Shown: positions 10,240 to 57,468, counted from the first letter of the whole stretch. The stretch is 63,869 nt of DNA, filler included, from Rhabdomonas costata (GCA_019059605.1; 50 parts of 50 records of this genome joined end to end with filler, not necessarily neighbours in it), one strand, 5' to 3'. Made by a program: numbers and translations. Notes: generated by a model not told the origin, from the sequence alone.

Positions 10240-11276
10240 CTAAAACATGGAAAAATAATCATAAGAGAATCAGAAAATTTATTTGTACATGGTGGTTTAA
10301 TTAATAAAGGTATTATAATGAATACTGCACAATTTCTTAGTTGGAAGAGAAAACGAAATGTCAATATAACAAACAATCCAATTAAAATTCAACGTATACA
10401 AGATGTAGATGAGACTACATACTATACTTCGATTTCTTTTGTACCATCATATGAGGATTTTAATTTTCAAATCAGTGGATGGATTCGAGATTTAAATAAA
10501 TGGTATACAGAAATTGTTACTACCATTTCTGACAAAGATCGATATACATTGTATGATGATGATAATTTTATAAAATTAATAGAATATACATTTAGTGACA
10601 AAGATATAACAACGGCAATGTGTGGTAAACATATTAATAGTGACGGAATGCCTTTATATTTATCAGATGTTACAAAAAATATCGCGGGCAATATAAAAAG
10701 TAGTAGTTATACAGTTCTTGAATTATTAAAAGAGAATATTATAACTAATTTATTTGTTGGTCATACACCTGTTGGATTTTCACCTACATTCATACCTGAA
10801 AATGATTTTTTAACAATAATGTTAAATACATCTATGTCAGGTTGCGGACCTCGTGATTTTTCTGTTTCATCAATTGTATTATCATTAAATGAACAAAATT
10901 TTACATTAGAAAGTAAACAAATTGTTCGAAAAGATACTTCATATCTTTTTATGTTACAGATAGTCTTGGTAAAATAAAAGATATATATGGACAAGGAAAT
11001 TCAACAACAACATACAACAGACAGATAATAGATGAATTACCTTTAATAAAATTAGGTAATACTACAGATGTATTAGATCGACTACAACTTTTTGATACTA
11101 AATGTGATGCTACAACTCCAATTAATCCTACAAATCAAAATACATATTTAAAGACACTTGTTGTTGATAAAGGAAGATTATATAAATTATATGTATCTAT
11201 TGAAGGATTTAAACATAAATATACATCAGTTGAAGTCGTAACTAATAGTCCTGAAATAATTTCTGATGTATTTTAA
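10240..11276 (+). CDS. Calcineurin-like metallophosphoesterase C-terminal part; AT-rich, intronless, virus-like; apparent -1 frameshift near 10917
   Basis: Frame open from the contig start with LFVHGGL, LFVGHTPVG and LNTSMS motifs (HGG, GHT and DTxxS-type boxes) to the stop at 10977. The -1 frame 10917-11276 is open for 119 codons with no ATG. Confidence 0.7.
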
Positions 11277-11285
11277 TTCAATACA

Positions 11286-11318
11286 ATTTATTTAGATTAA
11301 ATAATTATCTGAATAAAT
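11286..11318 (+). terminator. AT-rich hairpin directly after the stop codon (candidate Mimiviridae-type 3'-end hairpin)
   Basis: ATTTATTTAGAT (11286-11297) pairs with ATCTGAATAAAT (11307-11318), 12 bp with one G.T pair, in the 64-nt intergenic gap. Confidence 0.5.
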
Positions 11319-11340
11319 ATTATCGTTTAAAATTATATAC

Positions 11341-11412
11341 ATGGAAAATTATCAACATAAATATCTTAAATATAAATCAAAATATATAGATGCGAAAGAG
11401 AAACAACAAAAA
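11341..11412 (+). CDS. N-terminus of a protein with the giant-virus-type KYLKYKxKY motif (partial)
   Basis: ATG at 11341 gives MENYQHKYLKYKSKYIDAKEKQQ; I recognise this motif from Klosneuvirinae/Mimiviridae proteins. Confidence 0.7.
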
Positions 11413-12487
11413 NNNNNNNNNNNNNNNNNNNNNNNNNNNNNNNNNNNNNNNNNNNNTTAATTAATTAANNNNNNNNNNNNNNNNNNNNNNNNNNNNNNNN
11501 NNNNNNNNNNNNGTGGGTGGGTGTCCAAGACAAAGGCACAAACGGATCTGGCGTCGACATCCCTGCCCTGAAGCGTTCAGGAGGGCACATGGGAATGGAG
11601 GAAGAGGGGGTGCGGGAGAAAGGGAGGGGGCACCTCGTCAAAACCAGTGGAGGAACGGTGGCGGGAGCTGACCGCCGACGCCGACGCCGAAGGAGTGTGC
11701 AGGACGTCAGGCTCGGGGGGCAGCAGAGGGGGCGACGGCCCCTTCGCACTGCTGAAAGGTGCACCACACGACAGCCAGAAGCACTGGTCGAGGGGCAAAG
11801 TTCCAATTCAAAGAGCGTGATTGCTTTGCACGCACTTTTTCCTGGGGGGATGTATCATGGGTGTATGAACTTATGTATGAACTTAAATTTATGGTACCTT
11901 AGACGCAGAAACTCAGAAAATCTAATGTGACGGTGTTCCCTTTTTCCGTGGTTGTTGCTCTTTCGTTTCGAAGTCATTTTGCCCCATGTGAAGCCGTTGT
12001 CTCAGCACAACTTTTGTCTGAACCCGAAAGTAATGAGATATGAAACCGTGAGGTGCCTTCTGCGCCGAAGTCGCCACTTTTCGGGTGCTTCCGTGTTTGA
12101 GCTGATTTTCTGCTGCAAGTTGTGGCGGATTTTGGTGTTTGGTGAAGGGAGATATGAAGAAGTCTGAAGTACCTATGTGGTGCAAGTTCTGAGTTTTGGG
12201 TGTAGCGTACTTGATCAGAAGCAGGAAGGAAAACGTCTCAACGCGTTTCGGGTTTCTTATGCACTATCCACATTAGCAGCACCCGAACGCGAGCACAAAC
12301 CATATCCCCACCATGCAGGACACTTAGATTTCATCGGTTGGAAGGAGAACGGGAAAGGGAAGGGTTTCGCACAGCTTACTTTGTCCTGGACTGACTGGAT
12401 TCTAGCGACCAGAGACCACCACAGATGTCGTGTGTGTATGTGTCATGACGGATAAAGATGCGAAAACCGAAGGTGGGCATCGAATGC

Positions 12488-12686
12488 GGGGAACAAAGAA
12501 GAGGCAACTACCCAAGGCGCCCCAATGCAGCTGCTCGAGGGGACACCGCACGGGCAGGCCAATGCGCCGGGGATGCGGAGGGGTCCACAGAGACAGCAGA
12601 GGGAACTATTGCGATGCAAAGAGCATGTGTGTGTGTGTGTGTGTGTGTGTTGGGCGCATTGCGTAGTTGCCTCTTCTTTGTTCCCC
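12488..12686. repeat. 35-bp imperfect inverted repeat enclosing about 130 bp that include a (TG)n tract; MITE-like element or fold-back
   Basis: 12488-12522 versus reverse complement of 12652-12686: 33/35 identical; (TG)n at about 12626-12650. Confidence 0.7.
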
Positions 12687-13480
12687 CCAAAANNNNNNNN
12701 NNNNNNNNNNNNNNNNNNNNNNNNNNNNNNNNNNNNTTAATTAATTAANNNNNNNNNNNNNNNNNNNNNNNNNNNNNNNNNNNNNNNNNNNNCTGTGCTT
12801 GCATGGGCCTTGCGATCCAGACAGTGACTGGTGCGAACGTTTCATCTTTCTCATGGCTCCAGAGGATATCAGGTGTTAAGCCATTGCCCCGCAAAGGATA
12901 ACGTATGAGTTTGCAGGTGTGTGAAATGCGAACAGCCGAAAGGAAAGGAAAACGGAAAACGGGCTCATGTGGCAAAAATAATTCCCGTCCACACCGAGAT
13001 CAGATGGGACTGCTAACGGTGGGCCGCCTTCCTGCGATTCGAGCAGTATTTTGCAGTGGGCCATTCACGAACTTGGGGATTCGAACAGGAGATTTTGTAC
13101 TTTGGATCAGCGAGTACCGCACACTCGTCAGCAGTTCGAGTATCTGTGGGGTCTGTTTGATCACTGAAAGGTCAGTGTGGGACGTTCCTTGCAACGCCCA
13201 ATCGCACGAATCAGGGCTGCTTTTTCTTACTTACCTGTGCATACCTGTGGTTTTTGTGGTTTGCCCTTGAACCTCTCGAAAGGCGTGCATAGGGTGATGT
13301 TAGCCTCGTTTCGCCGGAATAGAACCCGGCGTTGTGGAAATGGGAGGGATATGGGTATGGGGTTTCCCTTTTGTGTACATGCGCAGCTTAGCTGTGGATT
13401 TCCCTTTCCATCACTGCTAAATCTGTGCGGAAAAAGCTCGGGCGGTTTGCTTCTGAGACTTCCCTGCAGCCAGGGCAGTG

Positions 13481-13711
13481 ATGTCAGGGACAGTTCCTTC
13501 GCCGATGGGTGGAGCCTCGTCCTCGACGTCCACGGGCGGCACCAGCTCCCATGCCATCCCGTTCGACTACGAGGCCCACCGCGAGGCTCAGGCCACGGAG
13601 GTCGCCGCAGGGAAGAGGCACTCCGTCGCCGTGCGCCCCAGGGAGTTGGCGCATATTCTCTTCCGGCAAAGGCAGCAGCAGCAGGCCCAGCTGCAGGGTT
13701 CAATACCTGCG
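13481..13711 (+). CDS. Probable first coding exon of a hypothetical protein
   Basis: MSGTVPSPMGG...IPFDYEAHREAQ...RQQQQAQLQGSIPA; GC3-rich, AG at 13468-69, GTGCGA donor at 13712. Confidence 0.5.
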
Positions 13712-16700
13712 GTGCGAGTGTGTGCACGGGCGTGCATAAATGTTCAACCACACCGCGCATACAACCTCGCCCGCACCCCGCCGCAGCCACCCCGGATACC
13801 AATCTCACATGTTTTTCTTTGCATGCGGCTTTTTGCAAATTGCTTGCTGCGGAGTTTGTTGTATTCCCAAGCGAAGGCATTGCTGGTAGTGGCTAATGTC
13901 CGTTTGAGTACCGAACAAATGCAAATCTCTACTGATCTCCTCTCAGCCAGGGGCTCCCAACCACAACNNNNNNNNNNNNNNNNNNNNNNNNNNNNNNNNN
14001 NNNNNNNNNNNTTAATTAATTAANNNNNNNNNNNNNNNNNNNNNNNNNNNNNNNNNNNNNNNNNNNNGTGGTTTTTTTCACTGTCTCACGAGTCCACGTT
14101 TGCAGCGGAAATGGGCGCTGGGATTGGCCGTCGGCCGAACTCTGGGGGTGGGAAAAGGGAAGGGAGAACCGATTTTGCTTATGGATTATTACTGAATAAA
14201 TCAGGCTAATCCAACTTTTCGGTCATGTGGTGCAGTCATTTTTTTGTTTCTGCGTGCGGCTTACCTGCAGCACCCCTGGAGTTCCTGGTTTCCGCTGCAA
14301 ACGTGGACTCGTGAGACAGTGAAAAATACCACACGGATACAGCAGCGTTTCCTTTTCCTTTCTGCATAGACGGCGGTCCTCAGCGCCCTCTACAAAATTT
14401 TGGTCCTTGTGCTGGCTCTTTGCTGACTTAGAGATGTTGCAGCGACGCTTTCTTCTCATCTGTCCTCAGCCCCTGCCAGGAACTCTGTAACTGCGGTGCC
14501 TTTTTCCATTCGTTCCAGCACACACACACACACACAAGGGATGCGCTTGTGCACTTGACCGAGGCGACTTTATTCCGGGAAGACTCGCGTTTCCGACTCC
14601 TCACTTCCCCACTGGGCTCCTCACCCTAGATGGGTTACTCTCCCCTGCCTCGAAGGGCTGGTGTCTACCTCCACGACCACATACAGACACTCCGCCTCCT
14701 CCACCACAGCTTGTTCTCATTTTCTTCCGCAGCACCCTACGCGCTCATTGACCGGGCCTCGTCTGCAAGGACTCTTCTTGCCGCCGCACCAAAGCGCTTA
14801 AAGCGCCAAAGTACTTAACTCACCGCAATGCCCGGTTTGTAGAAAAAAGATGTCCCGCTCAGACTCAGATAGCATACCATTCGGCTCCCTCATCCGAACC
14901 CCGGTGCCGTCCCCTCAAAGTGGTTTAGGTATTTTGGATCCAACCCTGGGGTATTGGCAAGTATCTTAGGGGTCTGGAAACTGGGGGTTTGGGGTCGGCT
15001 ATCATCGAAAAACAGTGACTTGCGCTTGACAGATGACATTTAAATAGAGGCACACGGAGCGAATTGAAGTAAGACCACCTTGACAATATCACCTGTTCGC
15101 TCCGAGTAAAACCCACGAAAGAACGACCGACTCGACTTTGGCGCGACTGGTGCGAGAAAACCGCGAAGAATACCCAGCAGCCATAGGTCGCACCCAAAGA
15201 GATCGTTTGCGCGATATGACCCTCCGCGTCAGCGGTGACACCCCAACNNNNNNNNNNNNNNNNNNNNNNNNNNNNNNNNNNNNNNNNNNNNTTAATTAAT
15301 TAANNNNNNNNNNNNNNNNNNNNNNNNNNNNNNNNNNNNNNNNNNNNTGGTTTTTTGTGCTTTGCGTGCACGGGCCTTTCCCTGGGAAACTGTTGCATGC
15401 CCCGCTGCCCCTTTTCCCCCTTCCTCCCTTGCTGCTATGCGCAGTTTTGGCAGATTTGCGGTGTCGACGTTTCTTGCCGAGTCTCCCGCAGTGGCATTTT
15501 CGCGGGGAGGTGAGGTGGCTTGCTTGCTATGTCCGGGCTTAAACGGGCAATAAGGACCAACGAGTGTTCCATCTCTATGTTATTACTATCATTATTAGGA
15601 GAGGGTGCTGTTGATGTTGTGGGGTAACCAATTTCAATGGTATCAGTAGTTCCTAGGGTTGAGTAATTGAATTGATGGATTAGATTATTCCGCCGTTCGC
15701 TTCCTTTATAGCTTTCTCCCTCTGAGATCCCTTTCCTCGCGAACGCTCCTCGAGGAAATGGTTAATCTAAGTTTATGTGATACGATATTACTGCGCGTCA
15801 CCCCACCGCAGTGCCAACTAACCCTAGTGCTCCCCACATCCGGGCCGATATGTGGGTATAAACACACATGCCGTGCGTCATTATGGACGTGTGTTTGTGT
15901 GCATATCCCAGATGTACATACCCTCTTCCCTCAATTCCTATTCCCCGTTCACTGCTTACTCAGGGGAGGTGTTTAGAAAATCTGCTGTGCCTGACGGGGA
16001 TGCGTTGAAAGTGCAATGATTTAAAAGGTGCAGCCGCCATTGTTTACCTGCAGCCCTGACTTAGGGAAAGTTTCTTTTCGATTTTCCCGTTACACTGCAG
16101 TCCATCCAAAACCAAAGTCTCAGAAAGGGGACCCTGGGCTGGAATGGAGCGGCACCACGAATGATGTCGAAAAAAATGTCCGCTTTGGATGTGCCACTTA
16201 CAGTTACATGCTGAAAAATCTTGAAAGAGAAAGTTTTATGCTTTTGTAGGTCTGGACAAAACATTTTGTGGAGTCCTGCCAATGTCGTCATGCTGCGTCG
16301 CGTCAGCAGCACATTTTGGGGGTGGCCCAAGACCCAAGCAGCTGTCATCGTATCATCATTTCAGACATCACGCCACAGCCTTTTCCACCTGCGAAGCATG
16401 AGGAACATATGCCCCCGAACGAAGAACAGCGGACGTGTTGATTCGCCACGCTTGATTCCCTGCCGGTATCGGGGCACCTTTCGTATCTCTGTGCAAAACC
16501 TCATCTCCAGGTGAACCACACCACCCCNNNNNNNNNNNNNNNNNNNNNNNNNNNNNNNNNNNNNNNNNNNNTTAATTAATTAANNNNNNNNNNNNNNNNN
16601 NNNNNNNNNNNNNNNNNNNNNNNNNNNATTGTGGTGGTATCTTGGCCTCCATGACCCACTCACTCACACTTACACCACCAGCATGCATGAACCACCCATC

Positions 16701-16854
16701 CACCATTAGACCCCATGCCATGCACCACAGGATGGAGGCCAAGATACCCACCACATACCATGCACCCAAAACTCAACTCAGGGAGACATCGCCATGCGTG
16801 GCCCTCTACATTCACCCTAACCATCACATTTTAAGTGAGGAGTGGGTGATATCT

Positions 16855-17607
16855 GAGCGCAGCGAATGCACCAGTAACGAAAGTTTGACACGAATAGTAG
16901 CGGAGCAGGATGGAAGATCACGAAGCGTAGTTGAGTAGATGATGCCTACTTGTCGGTCGCTGCGCTCCCTCCACCTTTCATCTTCACTCACTCACCTATC
17001 TTCAGTCCACATTCAACATGCGGTCTGGGTGTTTCACTTCCATCACCACTCATGCATCACACTCAGAGTGGGGTTGTTGGTCATCGTGGGTGCTCAGTCA
17101 CTCCCTAAGTCTTCCGGTGTTTCAGTGCGTAGGAGTAACCCTTCTACCATTTAATCACATTATACGGTTGGTATTCCTCGTTCACTTCAACCAACATAGT
17201 AGGAGAAGCGTAAGAGTGCGGTGGGTTTTGTAGGTGGGAGCGCATATCTACCAGAGTCGTTAATCCACGTCCACCACAAAATATGCATGCGGATCGTCAC
17301 TACACCGGCAAAAGCACGACTACGTTCCTTCTATTGTCATTGCCACACCAACAGCCATGACTATCACCAGTGTCGCTCCACAACCACAATGATGGTTACG
17401 CTCCCTTACACTCAACCGTTCAACAGCATCAGGTAATGGTATGTAGGTCTCGGCGACCTATCGCGAATGCCGACAGGATAACAGCATCGAAGGAGCGTAG
17501 CGACTGAGGACGTAAATACAGGAGGCATGAGAGTAGTGAATGCCGACAAGACAACACGAGCGAAGCGAGTAGCATACAACATCTAGGATGGATGACGAGC
17601 GTAGCGA
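16855..17607. repeat. Five dispersed copies of GAGCGNAGCGA (sixth copy at 31397-31407)
   Basis: Exact matches at 16855-65 (+), 16957-67 (-), 17493-503 (+), 17558-68 (+) and 17597-607 (+). Confidence 0.9.
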
Positions 17608-17909
17608 GACATGCCGACATCGTGAACCCCCCACCTGTAACTACGCATCATTTCTCCCCATAAAGGGCTTACAGGATGCTCCGTCATGGCGTAGCCACAG
17701 TAAAAATACAGCCTTTGACACGAAGGGCATGTCGAGGAACGAGGCATGACCGTAGTAGGATGTAAGATAGATGTCACGTAGCGGAGTAGCATACACGCAT
17801 CAAACAANNNNNNNNNNNNNNNNNNNNNNNNNNNNNNNNNNNNNNNNNNNNTTAATTAATTAANNNNNNNNNNNNNNNNNNNNNNNNNNNNNNNNNNNNN
17901 NNNNNNNTT

Positions 17910-19087: not shown

Positions 19088-19293
19088 NNNNNNNNNNNNN
19101 NNNNNNNNNNNNNNNNNNNNNNNNNNNNNNNTTAATTAATTAANNNNNNNNNNNNNNNNNNNNNNNNNNNNNNNNNNNNNNNNNNNNAAGGCCTGGGGTG
19201 CCCCTGCGTGTGGCGGTAGTGTGTTTTCTCGCCCTTTCTGTGGTTTACTTTATTGTTGGTTACCTGGTGGCGCGGTGAGAAAGCCGACGTGTC

Positions 19294-21747: not shown

Positions 21748-22846
21748 ATTCATTGTCTATAAATTGATGATTATTTAATTTATGCAATGAATCCTGCATT
21801 GATAAAGCAGCATCGCATGCACTACATTCGTGATTATCAATATCATTAGGAACATTCCACAAAGCCATAATACAATCTCCAATAAATTTGTCAATAATCC
21901 CATTATTTGATGTTATAATAGTACACATTTCGTTTAAATAGATATTCATTAATTTCAATAAATTATCCGGTGTAATTTTATCACATAAAGATGTAAATTT
22001 TGTAATATCTGCAAACAGTATAGTTACATATGTTACATCCATTTGTTGAATTGTATTACGTCTATTTGAAAATAATATTTGCACTACTTGAAATGGTATG
22101 TACTTACGAAATGCTTTGATACCTACATTTAATTTACTTACGGTGTATTCACATTCTTCAAATTCATACATATTAGATTTAAATTCAATGTCTTGATCTG
22201 TACAATTTATTAAATTTGTTAATTGTATTGATAATTTTTTAATAACACGTGACATCATAAATGATACTAAAATAGAAAGAATAAAAGATACTATTACAAT
22301 CAAACAAATAATAATTATACTGTATATAGATAAATTAGTTAATGTAGAATTGATATATTGTGTTGTAAGTAGACTTTCTTGAGTTAATGCTGTATGATCA
22401 AATAAAAAATATATCGTCATATCTACATCAAAAATCGTAATATTTGTAATTATTATATAATATGTAACATCATTTTCATCTGTCCAACATGAATTATTAT
22501 GCTTTTCTAATTCATTTGTTATCGAATAAGAATCTGATACATTATTGTAATACTTCCAAGAATCAAAAATATCATATAATTGTACTCGTGGATTATCTAG
22601 TACACTATCAACATATATTCCATATTGTGTAAATGATAATATAACATAACTTTGACCTAAATTTATTTTTGTTTGATAATATCGTATAATTGAATTAACA
22701 CTTATATACATTGAAAATAAATATGGTGTTGAATTTGTATATAGTTTTTGTTGTACAGTTCTAAACATTAAACCATATTGTTGATTAACAAGAATATTTT
22801 CAGAATATGTTGGTATACTAGTTACATTTAAAATTGAATTTGTAAT
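21748..22846 (-). CDS. Membrane-anchored class III adenylate cyclase (ectodomain, TM, linker, cyclase); AT-rich and intronless, partial at both ends
   Basis: TM segment SIYSIIIICLIVIVSFILSILVSFMM; FRKYIP linker; TILFADITKFT and IIDKFIGDCIMALW (both metal-binding Asp and the ATP-specifying Lys present). Frame stays open upstream of the ATG at 22768 as far as 22846. Confidence 0.92.
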
Positions 22847-23115
22847 TTAACTAGTATACCAACATATTCTGAAAATATTCTTGTTAATCAACGATATGGT
22901 TTAATGTTTAGAACTGTACAACCAACANNNNNNNNNNNNNNNNNNNNNNNNNNNNNNNNNNNNNNNNNNNNTTAATTAATTAANNNNNNNNNNNNNNNNN
23001 NNNNNNNNNNNNNNNNNNNNNNNNNNNCCCCCCCCCCCCCATCCTAGTGCCTCCTCATCTCGTTAAGTTTCCAAGTTTGGTGTTTTTTTTTGTGGCCTGT
23101 CTTGGTTTTACACAG

Positions 23116-32629: not shown

Positions 32630-33295
32630 TGATGTGAAACCACGACCACGTTTCGTGGGACGGGGTGTGGTTTACGGCGAACCACTTTCTTTGTGTTGGT
32701 CGCTTGCTCCTGCTTTTCCATGCGTTTTTTTCTTATCTGTACATAAAATGGCCAAGCCGCAAAGGCTCTTTGAATTCAACCGTCTGTGGTCTCTGTACTG
32801 TATGAGTTCCTCTGAATTTCTGTTCAAGTGTACAATTTTCAACCGGGGTGTCTCTTTGGAGTCATTGCGTTTTGTCAACAGTGGAGCAAATGTATCGTCA
32901 TTCAAAACTGCCACGGTGGAATTGACGACTACGAAGAAAAATCGCCTGTTGTCCTGCCCTGCCAGAAGATGCGGCAAACCCGGTGGAAAGCAAGCTCCAA
33001 AATTCCTGAGTTCAACACTCGTTATCTCTCAGTATATTTTTCCCCCATCACTTCAGCATACTTTTTTGATTTCTTTCTCCACTGTTTTCCACCAAGTGCT
33101 TCACCATTTTCGTTTTGGCCCATTTCGACCCCTGTGAACGGCTTTTGCACCTCTTCTCCAACCCANNNNNNNNNNNNNNNNNNNNNNNNNNNNNNNNNNN
33201 NNNNNNNNNTTAATTAATTAANNNNNNNNNNNNNNNNNNNNNNNNNNNNNNNNNNNNNNNNNNNNGTGGTGGGTGTGTTTGGGTGGGTTGGTCAG

Positions 33296-33865
33296 GAAGC
33301 TTCGGTGATGTTGATTGCGGCAAAGGACCGAGATGCTACAAATGAAAAACTTGCCCGGGATCTTTCCCAAAGCCTTGAGGAAATCGCGCGGTTCCGGTCT
33401 GAGTTGGCGAAGGTTCGCGGGATGGCTTTTGCTGAGACCCTCCAGCTGAAGGAGGAGCTCAAGACCTGTGTTACTGAGCTGGACCACGCGACCACTAAAC
33501 AACAGGAGAAAGGCGACGAAGTTCTACGACTGGAGCAGGAAGTCTCCGCACTGAACATTTCTCTCCAGGATCAAGATGCCGCTTCTGATTCGATTAAGAA
33601 AGAACGCGACATGCTCCGGGATGAGTGCTCCCGGCTTCGGACTGAGCTTGCGATTGTCCGCGGAACTGCGTTCACGGAAAGCAGCTTGCTGAAAGACGAG
33701 CTCAGCTGCTGTTCCTCTCAGCTGGAGCAGGCCCGCAGAGCGCAGCAGGACAAGAGGGTGGAACTGGTTCGGCTGAAGCAAGACGTTTCTTCGATTTCAG
33801 TATCCTCCTCGGATCGATCCGCTGTGAAGTCAAGGAAGGATACGTTCACGTTCGTTCCGTCGTGA
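33296..33865 (+). CDS. Coiled-coil protein exon with an 81-aa internal duplication
   Basis: RFRSELAKVRGMAFAETLQLKEEL...QQEK versus RLRTELAIVRGTAFTESSLLKDEL...QQDK, offset 243 nt. Confidence 0.7.
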   Translation, partial: EASVMLIAAKDRDATNEKLARDLSQSLEEIARFRSELAKVRGMAFAETLQLKEELKTCVTELDHATTKQQEKGDEVLRLEQEVSALNISLQDQDAASDSIKKERDMLRDECSRLRTELAIVRGTAFTESSLLKDELSCCSSQLEQARRAQQDKRVELVRLKQDVSSISVSSSDRSAVKSRKDTFTFVPS

Positions 33866-38753: not shown

Positions 38754-38799
<46 letters not shown>

Positions 38800-45189: not shown

Positions 45190-45270
45190 AACGAGAAGGA
45201 GGCCCGCATTGAGGCTCAGAAGAGGCAGCTGGAGAAGGACCAGAAGGAGTCCAAGCGGCTTTACGAAGAG
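45190..45270 (+). CDS. 81-nt coiled-coil exon
   Basis: CAG|NEKEARIEAQKRQLEKDQKESKRLYEE|GTGTGC. Confidence 0.65.
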
Positions 45271-46056: not shown

Positions 46057-46080
46057 CTACTACTACTACTACTACTACTA
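46057..46080 (+). repeat. (CTA)8 microsatellite at the contig start
   Basis: Seen directly. Confidence 0.95.
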
Positions 46081-48410: not shown

Positions 48411-51400
48411 GTGTGCCCTTTTTTCCTCTGTGCATAACCCCAACCCATAATGTTGACCGACCCCGGTATTCTAATTCTCAGCTCATGCCCATATCTAATT
48501 GTCACAACCCCCCCCNNNNNNNNNNNNNNNNNNNNNNNNNNNNNNNNNNNNNNNNNNNNTTAATTAATTAANNNNNNNNNNNNNNNNNNNNNNNNNNNNN
48601 NNNNNNNNNNNNNNNGGTGTATGTGAGTGCGGGTGTGAGTATGTGCGTGGGTCTGCGAATAGTGTGAGTCGGTAAGTGGGCGAAATGATTGATACTGGGT
48701 GTTTACTTGTGGCGACAAATTTTGTTGGTGCGTTTGATGCCCCATTCCGGCCCCCGTCCGCTTCCCACCTTGTTTTCTACTTTGTGTCTGTGGTGTGACC
48801 CCTTGCGTTAGTGCTGTCCTGGTTATTTCTTATGCATGTGCAGTCTTGCTTTGCCTGTTTTGCTCACAGTTTTTCCCTGGTCAGGGTGAAGGGAACCAAT
48901 TGTTGTGCGGCGTAGTTGTGGTTCTTGACCCTTTTTCATTGGGCAATGGTGGTGACATTGGGGACTTGATCGAGATTTTTCCAGCATATTTCACACGGAT
49001 GCCAGCTTTTCATTACGTATTCGTCGTTTTCTTTCTCGAAATTTCTGATCATCTGCTGAGAGCAGTCTCGTAAACTGAATTCTGTCTGTTTTATGGGCCT
49101 CAGCTCACTGACACTGACGGAGGGGAGGGATTAAGTTTATGAAACTACCGGAGGGGTTATTGCTGGCTTCCGTCCCCGCAGCTTTGGCCAGTATTTCTTG
49201 GTATTATTCTGGGGCCGTTGCACTGTGGATTCCTGCTGCGCATCTGCTGGTTTTAACCTATTCATGATGGCCGGTTTCGTCGAGACTTCCTCAAGGACAT
49301 CAACCAAATTAATAAAGACAAGCAGGCAGATAGGGTGTCGTGCACACTGTAGCTGCACTATCAGCGGGGGAACGAGGTCTTCGGTTGCTTCGCTTCTTGT
49401 TTGCCATGAGGCAATTGACAGTGTGTCAAGAAAAGGTAATTAGGCTCCCCAGGGCCACATGAGAAAAGCAATTAGCTCGACAGGTCAGACCCTGTTGTTG
49501 TTCTTGTATTTGGGGGGGGGGCAAGACAATGCACAAGCAGTGCAGATTAAGTGCACAGTTTGAAAGCGGGCATTGGTTTGCATTGGAACGGAAGAAAGGA
49601 GACAAAGCGAAACGCTATGTGCTCTGGGATACAAAGCGGATGTGGCAGACAATGGCTGGATGTTGCTCGTTGCTAGTTGCTTTTCTGGTAAGCAGATGGT
49701 GATCGGAATTTTTCTACCCGTTTTCAGACTTTTTTTTTTCATTTCGTTCCAATCATCCGATTCTCCCATGATGACACCCGCCTGATCTTGACTTNNNNNN
49801 NNNNNNNNNNNNNNNNNNNNNNNNNNNNNNNNNNNNNNTTAATTAATTAANNNNNNNNNNNNNNNNNNNNNNNNNNNNNNNNNNNNNNNNNNNNGTGGGG
49901 GGTTTTTTTAACCTTTCTCCCGCCCTGAATCTTGAACTGATGCCAGTGGGTGCGGTTTCTGTGGACTCCCGATGCTAGCCTTGGACCTAATGCTGTGTTG
50001 CTGTTGCACATTCGGTTGCGGTTTTTTTCCATCGACGCTGGCTTCAGTCTAGTAGGCTCCATCAGGTTCTGTGTTCTCAATTGTTGAATCTCGGCTGTAG
50101 TTTCCGCCATTCTTTTGCAATGATACTGATCTCATGCGAAATATCGCCATAAAAGTGTCATGCGATACTGTGCGGAGGGTGCGTCTTCCTTCCCTAAAGG
50201 TTGTTCTGCGTGGGCTGCGGGAGCTTCCCGTACAGCAGCCGCGCTCGGCTCCGAGGCAGAGCGGGAGGTCCGGCGCCCCTGCAGAGGTTCATACGAGCGT
50301 GTTTCTGTTTGAGGGCTGGCCACTTCAGCGGTTTGGTTTTGTATCGAGTGAGCGAGAAATGGAGTCTGATTCCTACTTCTTGATTCCGATTCTTGACTGA
50401 GCGTTCTTGTTCTTGTGTACTTTCCGTCAATGGGCCGTTTGGTAAATTTGGTTTTGTATTTGGACTTGGAGGATGAGGTGTGCCCATTCTGAGCGGCTAG
50501 GGCAACCAATGATGTGGACCGGCGTTAAATTTAATGTGGCAATCTCGAAAGTGGATCGTGTTCTGGTGTTCTGGGGTGTAAACAAGGCTTTCCTTTGTTC
50601 TTTTTTCTGCATACATGCTGTAAGCACAGGACGCACCCCACTCTCCCGCTTAGCCATGTTGTGTCAAAAGGACTATTACTCCTCGGCATCCACCGCTGAG
50701 GAGGCTCTGATGGTGTACGTCAGCGGAGTTCCCTGCCTGGCGGCGCGGTTCAGCTCTTTGGGTACCGCGGGCTATCCGCTGACTGGATTGTTCCCGCACC
50801 ACCTGCTGCCTGCCTCGCTGAGCCCAAGAGGCTGGCTCGAGGACGTCCCTGGGGGTGCGGCTATCTCTTTCTACTTGCTTCTCCCTTACATTACATTCCT
50901 TTCGCGAAGTTTTTCCCCCCCGCTTCCTTTTCCTCTTGAGACATTCTTGCTTGACAGTTGCTCACTACTTTGCTCACTACGTTACTCACTACGTTGCCGC
51001 GTCTTCCATGTATTTCGTGCTTCTTTTTTATGTGATGTTCAGAGTTTTTATTGCTTTACGAAGCAGCGAAAACANNNNNNNNNNNNNNNNNNNNNNNNNN
51101 NNNNNNNNNNNNNNNNNNTTAATTAATTAANNNNNNNNNNNNNNNNNNNNNNNNNNNNNNNNNNNNNNNNNNNNACGGTCGGCCATTCCCAGCGTTTGAT
51201 GAGAGCTTCGGTATTTCACTCTCAGAAGAGTCCGACGGGTGGTCGAAGTATGCCTACTCACTGTCCACTCGGGGTCGAACACGCTGTTTTCTGAGCAGGT
51301 CTCACACCATCGAGTAGAAGTGCTCTCCCTCGCCAATGAAGCAATGAAGCGTCAATTGACAAGAATGTGATCAAGCCTGCGTGAACCTTCATCGTTTGGT

Positions 51401-51449
51401 AAAGGCTAGTGCTCCCCAAACCAGGCGCTTTTATCTTATTACCTCTCAG

Positions 51450-51545
51450 GTCACCAACTCCAAGAACACTTTCTACGCGGTGAAGCGCCTGATCGGACGC
51501 CGCTACAGTGAGGTAGCCAAGGAGCTGAAGAACATTCCGTACAAG
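51450..51545 (+). CDS. Organellar-type Hsp70/DnaK, single 96-nt exon
   Basis: [41 protein letters not shown]. Confidence 0.9.
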
Positions 51546-53040
51546 GTACACAGAAAGCTTTGGCAACACCACACAGTGTTTCATGTTTGGTGTCTCCGGG
51601 TGGCCTTGAGGCCCCGCGAAAAGAAAAGTTCGTTTCGCAAGAGATTTTGGGACTGCAGAAGCAGAGAATGCGGTAACTGCTTCACTCGGGAGTTCATCTT
51701 TCTCCTTCAAGGTTCCTTCAAGGTCCACGGTGGCCGCGCTTCTGTGGGCGGCAGGTGGTTGATATTGATATCCTCAATGTAGTGGGCTTTGCATTTCGTC
51801 ACCGCAATTGCCCGAGTGTAGGAACAATTGTATGGTTGTTGTTGTTGTTTGCGGATTTTTCGAATTGTCGTTGCTGGGCGTTGGAGAAAAAAGGGAGTGG
51901 GGAGGCGGGGCGGAGGCCAATTTGCGGTGCGGCCGGATGAATTGGGACGTTTCATGGTATGTGTGATGCTCTGGTTAGCACTGTTAAACGTTTTGCGGTG
52001 CCAAACAACCGAACCGCTCAGTTTTTTTATGAACCGGTCAGTTTTTTTTGGCTATTTTGTTTTTAGGGAACGGGGGTAAGGTAAATTGTTTATAACTCTA
52101 AATGCATTTGCTTTAGCAAAATGGGGTTATGTGTACCATTTTTCTGCCTTCTACAGACTGTAGACGGTGATTCAGTTGAAGAGGGGTCAGGAAAATTTAT
52201 GACTGTTTAGCAGTGCTAAACGTTTAGCGCCCTGCGCACAGAAAAAATAAAGCTGAAGAGGGCTCGTGCGCCAGCCTGATGGCCATGGGTACAGCTGGAG
52301 TTTGGTATTTGAAAGACCTTACCCTCTTTTGCCATGGTGGGTGCAACCACAAANNNNNNNNNNNNNNNNNNNNNNNNNNNNNNNNNNNNNNNNNNNNTTA
52401 ATTAATTAANNNNNNNNNNNNNNNNNNNNNNNNNNNNNNNNNNNNNNNNNNNNCCACTCAATCAATGGTACCCGTTACCATTGATATCCTTTACTCCCAC
52501 CCAACTTCCATTGACTGACATGGGCTGACATGTGTGCTGGACTCCTGCTTCCCCTGAAGCCACACACCACCACTGCTACCACCCACACCCACGAAAACAG
52601 GCAAACAGGCAACCAAAGTGCTCCAGGGAGGAGGGTGGGATGCTGAAGAAATGGTAGAAGGAGCAGCACGTTTCTGCAAAACGCGGGCGAAGGGTGAATG
52701 GACTTGGCTCACTGTGGTTTGCAAAAGTTCTCTCTCCCCCAACCAATTGCAGCACTCTTTCCACCACTCTGGCCAATGCTGACGCGTCTTGATTCTGTCC
52801 ATGTCCTCCTATTTGGCGTACTTCCGATTCCGATTCCTCCTATTTCCAGCCCCTCCATTTTCTTCAGCTCGCACCTTAGGCACATTCGATACTTCGGTCT
52901 ATTTTGCTTTCACCGATGCAAATCCTGGCGTGCTGATTTGCAGCCTTGCTGGTTCGTAGCTGTGACCAAGGGATGCGGGGAAGACAGTGAGCCTGTGGTG
53001 TGCAGGAGTGGTAAGGGGGTGCACAACATCTTCCCAGAAC

Positions 53041-53628
53041 CTGCGAACGGGACGCGGCTGGGGTCGTCACAGCAGAGTTCAGCGACCTCCACGGGCTTAG
53101 TGGCGCCGTACGCCCGGGCCACCTCCATGGGCTGCAGGCACCCCAGTATCAGGATCTTCCGTGTAGTGTACAGCTGGTGCATTACCGGCTTCAATGGGCT
53201 GTGACTGAGAATAACCTGTGACCCGCGCAAGGGAATAGCACTGCCATGTCTCCAAGATCCAAGTGAAGGCAAAGCACAACGAGGAGAGGAAGTCATGCGA
53301 ACAGAGACTGGATGGATGAATGGATGAATGGATGGAGTAAAGGCTTCAGAGAGACCTGCTCAGGGTGGATCGGGAGTTCCAGGATATCGCCCAGCCGAGA
53401 GGCCACCTTGGCCTCCGTCCGGCCCCCGCCGTTGGTGAGGAACACAAACGGGATCCCAGCCTGGACCAGTCTAAGGATGCTCTCGCGGGCGCGCGGCAAT
53501 GGCTCCCGCCCGCGCAGCACGACCCCATCAATGTCAAAAGAGACCGCGGCTTGGGGAAACGCGGAGCCGCCAGCGGACGCAGAGGACAGCGAACGACGAG
53601 CCCCACATCGGCGAATAGAGCCCCCCAA
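53041..53628 (-). CDS. HAD class IIA hydrolase, HDHD5/CECR5-like; exons (contig edge)-53356 and 53215-53041
   Basis: SFDIDGVVLRG..PLP.A...L....IPFVFLTNGGG..E.....L...L.....PEQ|VILSHSPL; Arg/Ser-rich leader resembles a mitochondrial targeting peptide. Confidence 0.9.
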
Positions 53629-54480
53629 GTGTNNNNNNNNNNNNNNNNNNNNNNNNNNNNNNNNNNNNNNNNNNNNTTAATTAATTAANNNNNNNNNNNN
53701 NNNNNNNNNNNNNNNNNNNNNNNNNNNNNNNNGTTGGTGTGGGGATTACATGGCAGATTAAGATTTGAAGAGAGGGCGCCGAGTGACATCAGCAAACTGG
53801 AAAAAACGGTTTCGGATTCGAAAGCCCCCGCTGAAGGCAGATAATCCCGCCTCCAAATTATTGCCTTGTACACGCGGTGTGTTTGAGTGACTGTGAGAGG
53901 GTGAGGGTGAGCGAGCGAGCGAGCAAGCGTGTGTGTGTATGTGTGGTTGTGCGTGTGGTTGTGTTTATGCGAACGCAGGCAGCAGGAGTAATTTCGGAAG
54001 GCTCACTGGAGGCAGAAAAGACCCCAAAGCAATACTTGGCGCTAGTACTGAACATGCGCATGGTGCCAGACTGAATATGGAATGCCCTTTCGAGGTTTGT
54101 ATGGGACCTACCTCCAACTTTGGTACGGCGGTGCCAGTGCGAATCCGAATCTTTTGCAAACGCTGGCATGCCCCGCCACACACCGTGCATATTGCTTGCT
54201 ACCCCTCAGAAAGGCCCTATCGGACACAAACTACTTTACAGGAGCCCGATTTTCAATTATGTGCATATTTTTACCAGACCTGGAGTTCGGCCTGAAATCC
54301 ACAGCCAAGACCCAAAAATCTGATGCTCATCCATCCCCGAATACGCGGCTGTAGTACATTCGACAGACGACGGTTCTCTGCCGTAAAGGGCCCTGCAACC
54401 AGGTGGCAAGCAAATCCCGCAGAAGACTTCCTAAGCAAGCTCTCAAGAGAGGAAGTGATGTTGAATGGTTTTGGTCTTAG

Positions 54481-54681
54481 GTGGAGGAGCTGCGGGAGGC
54501 CAAGGCGGCGCTGCTGCGGAAGCTGCGGTCGGTGGAGGCGGCGAAGGCGTTGGAGGATCGGCTGGGGCGCCGCCACGATGGCGCCCTGGAGGGCCTGGAG
54601 AGGGAACGCGCTGAGCTGGCCCTGCAGCGCGAGGCCCTGCGAAAGGAGCGAGAAGAGCTGAAGCGCACCCAGGACCTCGAG
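54481..54681 (+). CDS. Coiled-coil exon (67 aa)
   Basis: TAG|VEELREAKAALLRKL...ELKRTQDLE|GTATAT, strongly GC3-biased. Confidence 0.7.
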
Positions 54682-56289
54682 GTATATGTGTCCGGGTGTT
54701 TCAAAATCGACTGTGATCTTGAGGCCCCGCGTGGGGCACTGAGCTGTTTGCTCTGGCTGCAACTGCCGCATTCGCGGCTGATGCATGAGTCTCGTTAGTC
54801 TGCGCTTTTCTGACTGGCGAGCCGGGGAGTGACCCCCGACCAGAAGCTGAATGAGTCCTAACAAAGTGCACGGCTGGAAATCCGTGCGCCACGCACGACT
54901 CACCCAACCCCNNNNNNNNNNNNNNNNNNNNNNNNNNNNNNNNNNNNNNNNNNNNTTAATTAATTAANNNNNNNNNNNNNNNNNNNNNNNNNNNNNNNNN
55001 NNNNNNNNNNNGCCAGGCCTTTGGGACCTCCGAAAAACACCACCTCATATTATGCAAGGGGATGCCGCCAATAGGCGCGATGATGCGCTGCCTGGGTGAA
55101 AACCTTACGCGATAAGGCAAGCCAGACATGCGCAGGAGCGCCTCTCCAAAACCACTAACTCCATCCATTGGATATCGGAAAAAACCATCACACCATGGAC
55201 AATAATCGCCATGTTAATCCTGGATCATCCGCATGTGAAATAGCGGCCACACAAGTAGTATGACGCAGCGGCGGCGCCCATCACTTGAGACCACCAGCCC
55301 TTCCTGGCCCCATGGCTTTGGACACCTTCCGGTCCCACAACCACATTTAGCAACACCCTACCTTTTCCCCTCCGCATCCACATCTGGATCTACCCAAAAC
55401 CCCACTTTTGTGCATCAGTACAAACCTTGTCAGGCTGTGGTGTCATGCCTCCTTTCAACTTCGCAGCATTTCCACCCTGGAAATGGAACCAAACTTCAAG
55501 TCCTCCTTGTGCCTTCGCACAGTGGCTTCCCTGCTACCGGAGCCTCCCAAGGCACTCCCAGCAATCATCCATCCACCATCTCCAAATGCATCTTCATCGC
55601 CATGTGGCGGGCGCAACATAAAGTTGCAGTACACCAGAAAATGCATAGTGCTGGGCATTCTCTGACTTCATTTGTTCCATCGCCTCGAAGAACGCCCGTC
55701 CTGGTTCACCATTCAGCCGTTGACAACGCCATCCTCCAAATTCCCGTGATCCCTCCGCAACCACGGCTCCACGTTCCGTGCAACCGCCGACTACCTGCGG
55801 CGAGCCCCGACTGCACGAAACTAATTATCCTCATCCTCATCCTCTTACACACCGGTAGAACGTATATCTCCACCAGAAGCAGCAGCTCAGCACCACGCGG
55901 GTCCTCCACATATCCCATGCTGATCCACCAACCTCACGCCCTTCGAAGTCCCACAATACTTCAGTTGGCCGCTGGCTGGAGGCTGACTGCCCACAGGCTG
56001 ACTGCCACCACATCATACTTACGTTCCCGCCGTTTCAGCATTGGCCACCCACTGAACCTGCGCATCTAGAGCCCCGAACCCAGCCGCCACGACCCCTGGA
56101 ACCACCACACGTGGCTACAAGCTTCCAGCCGCCGTACTCAATGCTCCGCCCGGCGGGGGTCACGGACCCGGGTGAACCCCAACACCCCCNNNNNNNNNNN
56201 NNNNNNNNNNNNNNNNNNNNNNNNNNNNNNNNNTTAATTAATTAANNNNNNNNNNNNNNNNNNNNNNNNNNNNNNNNNNNNNNNNNNNN

Positions 56290-57468
56290 AAATGGAAAAA
56301 TACAACTGGTTTGTTAAGTGTTTCTTTAAGCGACGTGAATATTACGTCTGTATCAAATAATCAATTACTTATATATGATTCTGCTTCTAGTAAATGGATA
56401 AATTCAAGTGCATTATTAGATACTGTTTTTACTTTGGAAAATAGTACAGATAAAACTAAGAAAGTACAACTGTCATTATCAGAAATTACAAGTGGAGAAA
56501 CAAGAATCTTAACTGTTCCCGATGCCTCTTGTGTCCTTGTTGGAGACACTAATGTTCAGACTTTAACTAACAAAACATTAGTTGATCCATCAAATATTAT
56601 CATGGCTACTTCATTAAAATCTGCGACATCAAATATTGATATATCATCTGCAATCGCTCCTACAAGTAATCAGGTATTAACAGCTGTTAATCCTACATCT
56701 GCAAATTGGCAGACTTTGGATTCATCCTTTTTATCTGATTTCGCCTTATCATCGCCATTAAATAATCAATTAATGGTATTTAACTCAGTATCAAATAAAT
56801 GGATGAATGCAGATGGTCTTTTAAGTATATCTCTTGCTGATGTGGCGATTACATCTCCACAAGATCATCAATTACTTGTTTATGATTCTGTAACAAATAA
56901 ATGGATAAATACAACTGGATTATTAAATGTTTCTTTGGGCGATGTGATATTCACATCGCCGTTAAATCATCAATTACTTATTTTCGATTCTGCATCTAAT
57001 AAATGGATCAACACATCCGGATTATTAAGTGCTTCTTTATCTGATGTGGAGATAATATCTCCATCTGATCATCAACTAATTGTTTATGATTCAGTGTCGA
57101 ATAAATGGAAAAATACAACTGGTTTATTAAGTGTATCATTATCAGACGTGAATATCACGTCTGTGTCAGATAATCAATTACTTGTATTTGATTCTTTATC
57201 TGGTAAATGGATCAATTCAAGTACCTTATTTGATACAGTATTCACTCTTATAAATAATACTGATAAAACTAAGAAAGTACAACTGTCATTATCAGAAATT
57301 ACAAGTGGAGAAACAAGAATATTGACTGTTCCCGATGCTTCTTGTGTCCTTGTTGGAGATACAAATGTTCAAACATTAACCAATAAAACATTAGTTGATC
57401 CATCAAATATTATCATGGCTACTTCATTAAAATCTGCAACATCAAATATTGATATATCATCCGCTATT
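56290..57468 (+). CDS. AT-rich, intronless, nested-repeat protein (virion fibre/structural-like), open across the contig
   Basis: 34-aa units LL.xSL.DV.ITSP..HQLL.YDS.SNKW.NT.G (102-nt period) inside a 271-aa (813-nt) super-repeat that also contains DKTKKVQLSLSEITSGETRILTVPDASCVLVGDTNVQTLTNKTL and SSAIAPTSNQVLTA...ANWQ. Confidence 0.85.

Follow-up and report, generated by a model that had tools for sequence, protein, structure and literature searches.

Three AT-rich contigs in the window (the whole stretch of 63,869 nucleotides analysed here, filler included, from Rhabdomonas costata, GCA_019059605.1) appear to come from at least two sources foreign to the eukaryotic, GC-rich bulk of the assembly, contigs 1 and probably 2 from a giant virus of Mimiviridae/Imitervirales type and contig 3 from a tailed phage, a reading to which we give about an even chance. 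A giant virus is the best-supported source of contig 1, and contig 2 is probably of the same source. Contig 1 would combine a euglenid-like phosphatase gene with a gene of a class found in giant viruses and recognisable by its TATATA leader and terminal tag, while contig 2 would present two head-to-head cyclase starts sharing a divergent promoter region with a mimivirid early-promoter octamer. The composition of the contigs, their gene structures, the motif distributions and the phage context of the contig 3 relatives are direct observations; we infer in addition that contigs 1 and 2 derive from one virus, associated with the host of the assembly. The giant-virus origin suggested for all three contigs in the original prediction was retained for contig 1 on its tag and, more weakly, for contig 2 on an AAAATTGA at −74, and was given up for contig 3, which has phage relatives.

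Composition and codon usage of the AT-rich contigs

The window consists of 50 separate contigs of 1173–1184 bp each, with spacers of N44 + 12 nt + N44 between them. Three are far more AT-rich than the rest, as was first described, with GC contents of 0.250 (contig 1, positions 10240–11412, with two genes on the + strand), 0.236 (contig 2, 21748–22927) and 0.310 (contig 3, 56290–57468) vs 0.419–0.570 across the remaining 47 contigs. Their reading frames have GC3 values of 0.10, 0.13 and 0.18, respectively, and coding sequence fills nearly all of each contig, in agreement with the gene density noted at the outset. No 150-nt window within contigs 1, 2 and 3 rises above GC 0.30, 0.29 and 0.36, respectively, and thus none of them carries a host-like GC-rich flank, contigs so short rarely spanning a virus–host junction. 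Codon usage is indistinguishable between contigs 1 and 2 (p 0.37), differs between contigs 2 and 3 (p 0.02) and shows no clear separation between contigs 1 and 3 (p 0.13). A cyclase domain is the sole Pfam match above cut-off in the ORFs of contigs 1–3; NCLDV hallmarks (major capsid protein, PolB, A32 ATPase, VLTF3 and RNA polymerase subunits) were not found in these ORFs by Pfam, 3.5 kb being far too short for their absence to count.

Contig 1: a split, putative phosphatase gene and a terminally tagged gene

The first gene of contig 1 appears, from its sequence, to encode a divergent PPP-like phosphatase of euglenid-like ancestry. Its first part, open at the 5' end (10240–10912, + strand), covers the C-terminal half of the metallophosphatase domain, as recognised by BLASTP and by LFVHGG and GHTPVG, the only elements that the fragment shows of the motif series GDxxDRG / GNxx / HGG / GHxxH. 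The reading frame is closed by a stop at 10975, and the gene goes on in a different frame through 119 open codons (10917–11273) that lack an ATG, the second part of the gene (10960–11276, + strand) ending with TAA at 11274–11276. Because reading continues in this way past the stop, the gene carries a short intervening sequence or a frameshift, and the earlier description of the contigs as intronless was not upheld. Excision of a candidate 47-nt GT...AG intervening sequence (10913–10959, + strand) brings both frames into phase. A 1-nt loss at any point of 10917–10974 would do the same, and homologues favour neither reading. Six different GT...AG pairs bring the frame back, so that in AT-rich DNA one would be expected next to any frameshift by chance alone.

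The phosphatase family is extremely sparse. An exhaustive search of 1.84 billion representatives returned four proteins, two of which align over most of the fragment, one of them being RCo037780 of Rhabdomonas costata (P0152, 746 aa), its sole named relative. BLASTP of the fragment gave 2e-14 against P0154, and identity to RCo037780 is 31% over 160 aa. Residues 266–314 of RCo037780 (GDGGDRG...GNRD) match the PP2A catalytic subunit with an E-value of 4.4e-4. From LFVHGG to the domain end, RCo037780 and the contig 1 fragment run collinear, but the contig 1 copy is longer by ~33 aa following HGGLIN and by 14 aa ahead of the GHTP motif, reads GHTPVG where RCo037780 has GHTPHG, and is split in its reading frame. 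The fragment has no Pfam match, even at E 10, scans of IMG/VR yielded no viral relatives, and the predicted model has a pLDDT of 32.6.

The second gene lies 64 nt downstream and is open at its 3' end (11341–11412, + strand, MENYQHKYLKYKSKYIDAKEKQQK). The protein begins MENYQH-KYLKYKSKY, with the KYLKYKSKY tag at 11359–11385, six residues past the Met (ATG 11341), and a TATATA leader occupies 11334–11339 on the + strand (−7 to −2 of the ATG). A 12-bp-stem hairpin (11286–11318, + strand; dG −9.1, z −2.33, with 5 of 200 shuffles equally good) begins 10 nt past the stop codon of the first gene. This stop codon (11274) is the one visible, and the proposed post-stop hairpins have a candidate at this one site, the palindrome of contig 2 being located upstream of its gene.

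The association of KYLKYKxKY with giant viruses, made in the original prediction, was supported in IMG/VR, where at least 120 loci contain the pattern and 74 of the 120 listed are named GVMAG, vs 7 of 23 loci for a scrambled control pattern with the same codons. Among 124 complete ORFs of the tag loci the tag is terminal in 120 (N-terminal in 82 and C-terminal in 38) and internal in 4. Prokaryote genomes gave 124 tag matches, of which only 9 fall at the N-terminus of an ORF of 60 aa or more, and these lie mostly on contigs of GC 0.22–0.28 that are apparently mis-binned. The 20 nt preceding the ATG contain TATATA in 60 of 84 tagged genes from giant viruses vs 206 of 767 other ORFs. The octamer AAAATTGA, given as an early promoter upstream of genes in mimiviruses, CroV and BsV in the excerpted source (PMC5871332), precedes just 1 of 82 tagged genes. 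Across the tag-bearing loci as a whole it is found in sense within 120 nt upstream of 169 of 828 ORFs (at least 100 aa; antisense 65), and in phage-like loci upstream of 4 of 1103 and 8 of 812 ORFs; this sense enrichment, together with the rarity in phage-like loci, identifies the tag-bearing loci as mimivirid-type. Their median GC is 0.229, to which the 0.25 of contig 1 is comparable. We defined a giant-virus tag gene class, which is empirical and not a curated family, whose members are required to carry the tag no more than 15 residues from either protein terminus and TATATA in the 20 nt ahead of the ATG, and to lack AAAATTGA. The second gene of contig 1 has the tag and the TATATA leader and lacks AAAATTGA, and it departs from the usual continuation after KY, with IDAKEK instead of LxLK..GG.

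The same features bear on a cellular origin of contigs 1 and 2, either in an AT-rich eukaryote (prey, parasite or contaminant) or in an AT-rich nuclear region of the host, which we consider highly improbable. Removal of the 47-nt segment rejoins the phosphatase in frame, and a spliceosomal intron would require a nucleus and be odd for a cytoplasmic virus; in addition, the sole named relative of the phosphatase is from a euglenid, and the contig 2 cyclase groups with a Euglena transcript. However, the six frame-restoring pairs make a chance GT...AG pair expected, just 64 nt separate the two genes, and across the collections searched the combination of terminal tag and TATATA leader marks a class of giant-virus genes. 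The eukaryote-affiliated transcripts of one euglenid, moreover, are not below GC 0.45 in the excerpted source (PMC8219788). These observations would also suit an endogenised giant-virus element, which would be a variant of the giant-virus explanation rather than of the cellular one.

Endogenous elements of this kind are described for Euglena gracilis, where, in the excerpted account, giant viral elements of Asfuvirales lie in a euglenid genome assembly and show erosion, and where intron invasion of endogenised viral genes is discussed with reference to other GEVE studies (PMC12455990). By analogy, the split phosphatase gene could reflect similar decay. The Euglena gracilis elements differ in their affiliation to Asfuvirales, whereas the promoter octamer and terminal tag found here point to an Imitervirales-type virus; no GC-rich flank, as would mark an integration, is present on the contigs here.

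Contig 2: a class III cyclase and an inverted duplication

Contig 2 carries a 3'-open class III nucleotidyl cyclase gene on the − strand (21749–22768), encoding an N-terminal region of ~145 aa, one hydrophobic span (residues 146–172, 22333–22253, − strand), a linker and the first half of the cyclase domain (residues 245–335, 22036–21764, − strand). The domain, whose second half lies beyond the contig end, matches PF00211 (Guanylate_cyc) with 46.3 bits vs a cut-off of 21.9 (E 4.7e-12), and the metal-binding Asp residues D254 (FADI) and D298 (IGD) do not vary across the alignment. The Lys of DKFIGD suggests that the enzyme is probably an adenylate cyclase. Among single-span class III adenylate/guanylate cyclases, the metagenome protein P0004 is built like the contig 2 protein, its N-terminal region being followed by a hydrophobic span, a linker and the cyclase; P0004 and the Euglena gracilis transcript P0005 share 34–38% identity with the contig 2 protein, in the linker and cyclase only, and no relatives of the N-terminal 145 residues were detected.

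The palindrome of contig 2 lies ahead of its gene and is no post-stop hairpin; it consists of two divergent gene starts, duplicated head to head as an inverted repeat. It is centred on 22836 (22747–22925), and its arms (22747–22835 and 22837–22925) are identical at 84 of 89 positions, each containing ~67 nt of upstream DNA, the ATG and six codons. The start of the mirror gene copy (22904–22927, + strand, MFRTVQPT...) runs off the contig end. Since it reaches the contig end, the palindrome could be an amplification or assembly fold-back, the five mismatches between the arms making a fold-back less likely. The divergent region of 135 nt between the two cyclase gene starts contains the sole copy of AAAATTGA in the window (22830–22837, + strand), which occupies −74 to −67 relative to ATG 22904, where the mirror copy starts. 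A sense copy at −74 has a chance expectation of 0.03, and one of the three visible gene starts carries it; a count of one is close to the composition expectation for 2.35 kb on both strands, only position and orientation being unusual. With one site only, at a distance in the tail of those observed (the −80 to −71 bin holds 9 of 177 sites), the octamer is weak evidence for a virus of Imitervirales/Mimiviridae type. Direct reading revealed no Shine-Dalgarno-like sequence before either start codon.

Contig 2 could also be phage DNA, since the nearest viral cyclases (31–35% identity) lie on phage-like contigs with overlapping, operon-like genes, PcfJ and HNH domains and GC 0.29–0.33, and the contig 2 protein (P0002) matches phrog_35576 of PHROG (E 2.5e-20). 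IMG/VR contigs very often carry class III cyclases, 528 relatives having been found and none of the 80 matches listed being GVMAG-named, and P0002 falls inside a supported set of nine (96) in the tree that includes phage-like contigs. Only contig 1 would then be giant-viral, and contig 2, like contig 3, would come from a phage or an AT-rich bacterium. We regard this as rather unlikely: the GC of contig 2 (0.236) is below that of the phage-like cyclase contigs, its codon usage is like that of contig 1 and unlike that of contig 3, and no ribosome-binding site is visible. A sense AAAATTGA upstream of the start, moreover, is found in <1% of phage-like ORFs vs 20% in mimivirid-type loci, and the closest tree neighbours of P0002 are the Euglena gracilis transcript and one metagenome protein (SH-aLRT 85), outside the phage-like clade.

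The giant-virus explanation of contigs 1 and 2 invites comparison with Bodo saltans virus (Klosneuvirinae, Imitervirales), the one giant virus so far isolated from a euglenozoan host. In the excerpted description, this virus has a GC content of 25.3% vs ~50% in its host, its early promoter is AAAAATTGA, its ORFs are followed by palindromes and it has genes recently duplicated in direct or inverted orientation, and a palindrome or hairpin after the stop codon is given for ApMV and BsV (PMC5871332). Contigs 1 and 2 resemble the virus so described in their GC of 0.24–0.25, one AAAATTGA upstream of a gene, one candidate post-stop hairpin and one inverted duplication, but the host of Bodo saltans virus is a kinetoplastid rather than a euglenid, and the two contigs carry no marker gene for subfamily placement. 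Apart from the cyclase domain, the proteins of contigs 1 and 2 showed no sequence homology to any virus, and no relatives of them were detected among 121 IMG/VR loci.

Contigs 1 and 2 may tentatively be read as an Imitervirales virus infecting, or endogenised in, a euglenid and having acquired euglenid-type PPP-like phosphatase and receptor-type adenylate cyclase genes, which we hold possible at well below an even chance. If true, this would be the first mimivirid–euglenid pair, the giant-virus records for Discoba in the excerpted source otherwise comprising only Bodo saltans virus, from a kinetoplastid, and the Asfuvirales elements of Euglena gracilis (PMC12455990). Because two contigs look mimivirus-type and one looks like phage, a new giant virus–host pair is possible but far from shown.

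Contig 3: a tail-fibre-like repeat protein

Contig 3 is a single + strand frame open at both ends (56290–57468) that encodes a tail-fibre-like repeat protein. The QTLTNKT repeats originally described are present, occurring twice in the frame (56557–56577 and 57370–57390). The proteins that match it best carry domains of Pfam families typical of phage tail fibres (Collar, DUF2793, Mtd_N and Peptidase_S74), and PHROG comparison gave the virion structural and tail-fibre families phrog_692 (2.9e-11) and phrog_38058 (1.8e-5). The best IMG/VR relative (L122, 55% identity over contig 3 residues 13–392, E 5e-53) is a 1778-aa ORF flanked by major head protein and tail protein genes; terminase, portal, head or tail genes are likewise present at L128, L131, L136 and L145, and all five loci inspected are tailed-phage structural modules. 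None of 80 IMG/VR relatives has a GVMAG name, and the view of the repeat protein as a mimivirid trait was not supported. In the preferred explanation, contig 3 is part of a tail-fibre-like structural gene from a tailed bacteriophage of some AT-rich bacterium in the sample.

A single Klosneuvirinae-like giant virus as the source of all three contigs is accordingly improbable, and the common source first proposed is not supported, in view of the tailed-phage relatives of contig 3. All three contigs are AT-rich, with GC3 of 0.10–0.18 and no clear codon-usage separation between contigs 1 and 3, and giant viruses carry genes of phage or bacterial origin. Against one virus, beyond the phage modules and the absence of GVMAG names, stand the GC of contig 3 (0.31 vs 0.24–0.25) and the lack of any match between its protein and the 120 mimivirid-type loci, the single match being L001, its own IMG/VR relative. 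The Atlas neighbours of contig 3 with a recorded taxon are Uroviricota, which is a lead only, and no evidence on contigs 1–3 bears on the subfamily.

The AlphaFold2 model of the contig 3 protein is beta-rich, its quality (mean pLDDT 48.3) being too poor for fold comparison. Tandem repeats of 102 nt (34 aa) extend over 56750–57259, and a 300-nt direct repeat of 88% identity recurs at a spacing of 813 nt (56290–56589 and 57103–57402). The same repeat motifs appear in the alignment consensus of contig 3 and the L122-type tailed-phage protein, although L122 has a higher GC (0.36 vs 0.31) and contig 3 represents only a 393-aa internal piece.

Composition and sources of the AT-rich contigs

The window is assembled from 50 contigs of 1173–1184 bp each, with joiners of N44 + 12 nt + N44, and is not one stretch of the genome. 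Three of these contigs, designated contig 1 (10240–11412), contig 2 (21748–22927) and contig 3 (56290–57468), had been singled out as AT-rich, and they do stand apart, with GC contents of 0.250, 0.236 and 0.310, respectively, vs 0.419–0.570 in the other 47 contigs and GC3 values of the longest frames of 0.10–0.18 vs 0.44–0.73, in both cases far outside the spread of the other 47. An alternative genetic code was ruled out, because the standard code leaves each of the three long frames open. The original prediction attributed all three contigs to one Klosneuvirinae-like giant virus of a euglenozoan host. This survives in part: the codon usage of contig 2 is like that of contig 1 (p 0.37) and unlike that of contig 3 (p 0.02), but the inspected relatives of contig 3 lie in tailed phages. 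The overall reading, based like all contig readings here on 3.5 kb and public collections, is that contig 1 and probably contig 2 are fragments of a giant virus and contig 3 of a phage, a combined statement to which we give even chances. A bin based on composition only would be impure on this reading, because one of the three AT-rich contigs would be phage DNA, and AT-rich 'viral-looking' contigs of a fragmented protist assembly can be mixed in source. The lead in contigs 1 and 2 is real and of moderate interest; it rests on ~2.3 kb, in which not one hallmark gene was found.

The 47 GC-rich contigs look like eukaryotic, largely non-coding DNA with sparse genes. Pfam matched one of ten long open frames from these contigs (Golgin_A5, 33266–33862), no Rfam family reached threshold anywhere in the window, and inspection of the contig at 46057–47236 (GC 0.419) revealed nothing notable.

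A terminal protein tag and a split phosphatase-like gene in contig 1

Contig 1 is very likely Imitervirales-type giant-virus DNA. Its second gene starts at 11341, only 64 nt past the stop of the first, is preceded by TATATA at 11334–11339, where the mimivirid early-promoter octamer AAAATTGA is absent, and encodes a protein beginning MENYQHKYLKYKSKYIDAKEKQQK, which carries the tag KYLKYKxKY. Only the first 24 aa of this protein are available, so the motif was back-translated to a degenerate DNA pattern and scanned in IMG/VR. The pattern occurred in at least 120 loci (L002–L121) with a median GC of 0.229. Among the matches listed, 74 of 120 carried GVMAG names (giant-virus MAG contigs, counted from names), vs 7 of the 23 loci returned by a control pattern of the same codons scrambled, and many of the tag-locus contigs without such names measure 100 kb to 1.15 Mb. 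The GVMAG names reportedly fit those of a giant-virus MAG study. In the tag loci, 169 of 828 ORFs ≥100 aa have AAAATTGA in sense orientation ≤120 nt upstream (65 in antisense). The sites are densest at −60 to −41, and 75 of 114 loci hold one or more such ORFs; the same count in phage-like loci gave 4/1103 and 8/812. The tag-bearing IMG/VR loci are mimivirid-type, and the proposal that KYLKYKxKY is a giant-virus trait is supported within the collections covered.

Of 124 complete ORFs among the matches listed, 82 carry the tag at the N-terminus, 38 at the C-terminus and 4 internally, with an extended consensus of M-x(3-12)-KYLKYKxKYLxLK..GG (for example L013:331-357, L058 and L079); the tag of contig 1 runs on after KY as IDAKEK, not as LxLK..GG. 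Tagged genes are a distinct gene class: TATATA lies ≤20 nt from the ATG in 60/84 tagged genes vs 206/767 other ORFs, and AAAATTGA occurs upstream of only 1 of 82. No Pfam domain was detected in eight of ten tagged proteins, the others matching XRN_N and MgtE_N. The tag may mark late or virion-targeted proteins, although this is a guess, and a single exact-string literature search for KYLKYK returned only two papers, both unrelated. For very short contigs in which hallmark genes are missing, a terminal tag with a TATATA leader offers a cheap marker of mimivirid-type DNA.

Across 596 Gb of prokaryote genomes, the tag pattern gave at least 124 matches, of which 9 of the 124 listed were N-terminal in an ORF ≥60 aa; these nine come mostly from contigs of GC 0.22–0.28 belonging to a few MAGs and show the viral consensus in full. 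About ten tag contigs (L301, L313, L316, L319, L330, L333, L335, L337, L348 and L350) belong to one MAG labelled Candidatus Kapaibacterium, L315, L379 and L390 are further contigs of GC 0.22–0.28 in bacterial MAGs with the tag consensus at protein ends, and one tag-bearing low-GC contig sits in a Rhodobacteraceae MAG. Such contigs of GC 0.22–0.28 in bacterial MAGs look like mis-binned giant-virus DNA.

The first gene of contig 1 has an open frame between the contig start (10240) and a stop at 10975, and its product corresponds to the C-terminal half of a divergent metallophosphatase-like protein, bearing LFVHGG and GHTPVG motifs. A word-based homologue search with this fragment found no relative, and exhaustive phmmer against 1.84 billion cluster representatives found four proteins at E < 1e-3, of which only two align across most of the fragment. 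One, the unnamed database protein P0154, is collinear from the first residue (BLASTP 2e-14); the other, P0152, is EukProt RCo037780 from the euglenid Rhabdomonas costata, with 31% identity over 160 aa. Residues 266–314 of P0152 (GDGGDRG...GNRD) match PP2A catalytic subunits (E 4.4e-4), a match that suggests a remote PPP-like phosphatase family. No Pfam model detects the family, no relative was found in IMG/VR by single-protein or alignment-based scans, and a PDB profile search with the alignment gave nothing meaningful; the predicted structure was too poor to use (pLDDT 32.6).

A second frame of 119 open codons (10917–11273) lacks an ATG and is therefore read as the continuation of the phosphatase gene past the stop at 10975. 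Excision of 47 nt at 10913–10959 (GTAAAC...TTACAG) brings both frames into phase, but this is one of six GT...AG pairs that restore the frame, and one missing base anywhere in 10917–10974 does likewise, so the split is a candidate for either an intron or a frameshift. Alignments with both homologues end at residue 214–219, upstream of the frame junction, and BLASTP of the downstream part alone against P0154 gave no match. The three contigs had been described as intronless, a description that the split phosphatase gene leaves in doubt. An endogenous element that has eroded or acquired an intron would be compatible with the split gene, although one such case carries no weight as evidence; passages of a 2025 paper consider intron invasion in endogenised viral genes at large and refer to other GEVE studies (PMC12455990). 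A 99-nt in-frame intron was also considered as the source of a 33-aa insertion in the phosphatase and was rejected, an open stretch of 33 codons being improbable by chance at this base composition (estimated at ~0.05).

Of the hairpins proposed to follow stop codons, one candidate was seen, after the contig 1 stop at 11274, where a hairpin with a 12-bp stem lies at 11286–11318 (z −2.33; equalled by 5/200 shuffles); the supposed hairpin of contig 2 consists of duplicated gene starts.

A cyclase gene, an inverted duplication and a possible euglenid link

Contig 2 carries a 340-codon frame on the minus strand, which begins at ATG 22768 and runs off the contig. The protein comprises, in order, an N-terminal region for which no relative was detected, a single hydrophobic span (residues 146–172), a linker and a class III cyclase domain, of which the first half is present (PF00211, E 4.7e-12, 46.3 bits vs a cut-off of 21.9) and whose two metal-binding Asp residues do not vary across the alignment. 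Its best relatives, a metagenome protein with an equivalent architecture and a Euglena gracilis transcript, followed by cyanobacterial cyclases, share 34–38% identity over the linker and cyclase part only. A quick 42-row tree, in which all branches were long and the tool issued a warning, united the contig 2 cyclase with the first two of these relatives (SH-aLRT 85), and this group nested within a set of nine (support 96) together with cyclases of phage-like IMG/VR contigs. A single-protein scan of IMG/VR with the cyclase found no relative; a later scan returned at least 528, with GVMAG names for 0 of the 80 listed. Cyclases are thus common on viral contigs, and the domain therefore says little about the origin of contig 2. 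The IMG/VR loci L202–L281 carry class III cyclase genes. Among them, one member of a tight clade (L202, L203, L208, L209 and L210; GC ~0.31) is a contig of 296 kb, probably a jumbo phage, that has overlapping genes together with PcfJ and HNH domains.

Upstream of the cyclase gene, a palindrome centred on 22836 has arms of 89 nt each (22747–22835 and 22837–22925) that match at 84/89 positions. Each arm includes a start codon and six codons, and the mirror-image gene start (ATG 22904, MFRTVQPT) leaves the contig end. The palindrome is read as two gene starts duplicated head to head, with a divergent promoter region of 135 nt between them. It could possibly be an amplification fold-back instead, but the five mismatches between the arms count against that origin. 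A role as a transcription terminator was ruled out, as start codons lie inside the arms. The promoter region holds the sole AAAATTGA of the window (22830–22837), in sense orientation at −74 to −67 of ATG 22904, with a chance expectation of 0.03 in the 200 nt of available sense upstream sequence. On balance, we lean towards contig 2 coming from the same kind of virus as contig 1.

Among described systems, Bodo saltans virus comes nearest in kind to contigs 1 and 2; passages of its description report a GC content of 25.3% vs ~50% in the host, an AAAAATTGA promoter, post-ORF palindromes, a duplication 'accordion' and recent direct or inverted duplications (PMC5871332). The 2025 paper names this virus as the only isolated giant virus of Discoba and reports, for Euglena gracilis, endogenous elements derived from Asfuvirales only (PMC12455990); a 2021 review describes virus infection of euglenids as being without experimental verification (PMC8061765). 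For contigs 1 and 2, the only pointers to euglenids are indirect and drawn from sequence similarity: Rhabdomonas costata has a relative of the phosphatase, and the cyclase has a Euglena neighbour. No GC-rich flank is present in any AT-rich contig. If the two contigs were tied to the host of the assembly, they would represent a second giant-virus order associated with euglenids, and their two euglenid-like genes would become candidates for signalling genes of host origin.

A probable phage tail-fibre-like repeat protein in contig 3

Contig 3 is likely to carry a phage tail-fibre-like gene. Its frame of 393 codons, open at both ends, encodes 34-aa repeats (LS.SLSDV.ITS...QLL.YDS.S.KW.N) and a longer unit with QTLTNKT, and the protein has 272 database matches at E ≤ 0.001, all unnamed or 'hypothetical', of which the few with Pfam domains contain Collar, DUF2793, Mtd_N, Peptidase_S74 or collagen. 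PHROG matches included one family of virion structural proteins (2.9e-11) and one of tail fibres (1.8e-5), and feature-based Atlas neighbours with a recorded taxon belong to Uroviricota, which serves as a lead only. The predicted structure was too poor to use (pLDDT 48.3).

A single-protein scan of IMG/VR found one weak relative (L001), and an alignment-based scan found 81, with a median GC of 0.404 and GVMAG names for 0 of the 80 listed. The best listed relative, a 1778-aa ORF in L122 (55% identity over residues 13–392, E 5e-53), has a major head gene (phrog_3437, 8.6e-36) on one side and tail genes (phrog_376, 3e-75) on the other, and terminase, portal, head or tail genes adjoin the relative in L128, L131, L136 and L145. 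All five loci inspected, out of 80, are tailed phages. The contig 3 protein had no match in the 120 mimivirid-type loci, and in tblastn of six proteins against 121 IMG/VR loci only L001 matched, itself found as a contig 3 relative. The earlier view of the repeat protein as a mimivirid trait finds no support in these phage contexts or in the mimivirid-type loci.

The ends of contig 3 (56290–56589 and 57103–57402) are 300-nt direct repeats of 88% identity lying 813 nt apart, and assembly across such repeats may have collapsed or mis-joined this 1.18-kb contig. The 'phages' collection yielded three weak matches to the contig 3 protein, of which one, in ON014754.1 (Pseudanabaena phage), coincides with a gene whose annotation reads 'botulinum neurotoxin type B', probably a mis-annotated repeat-rich structural protein.
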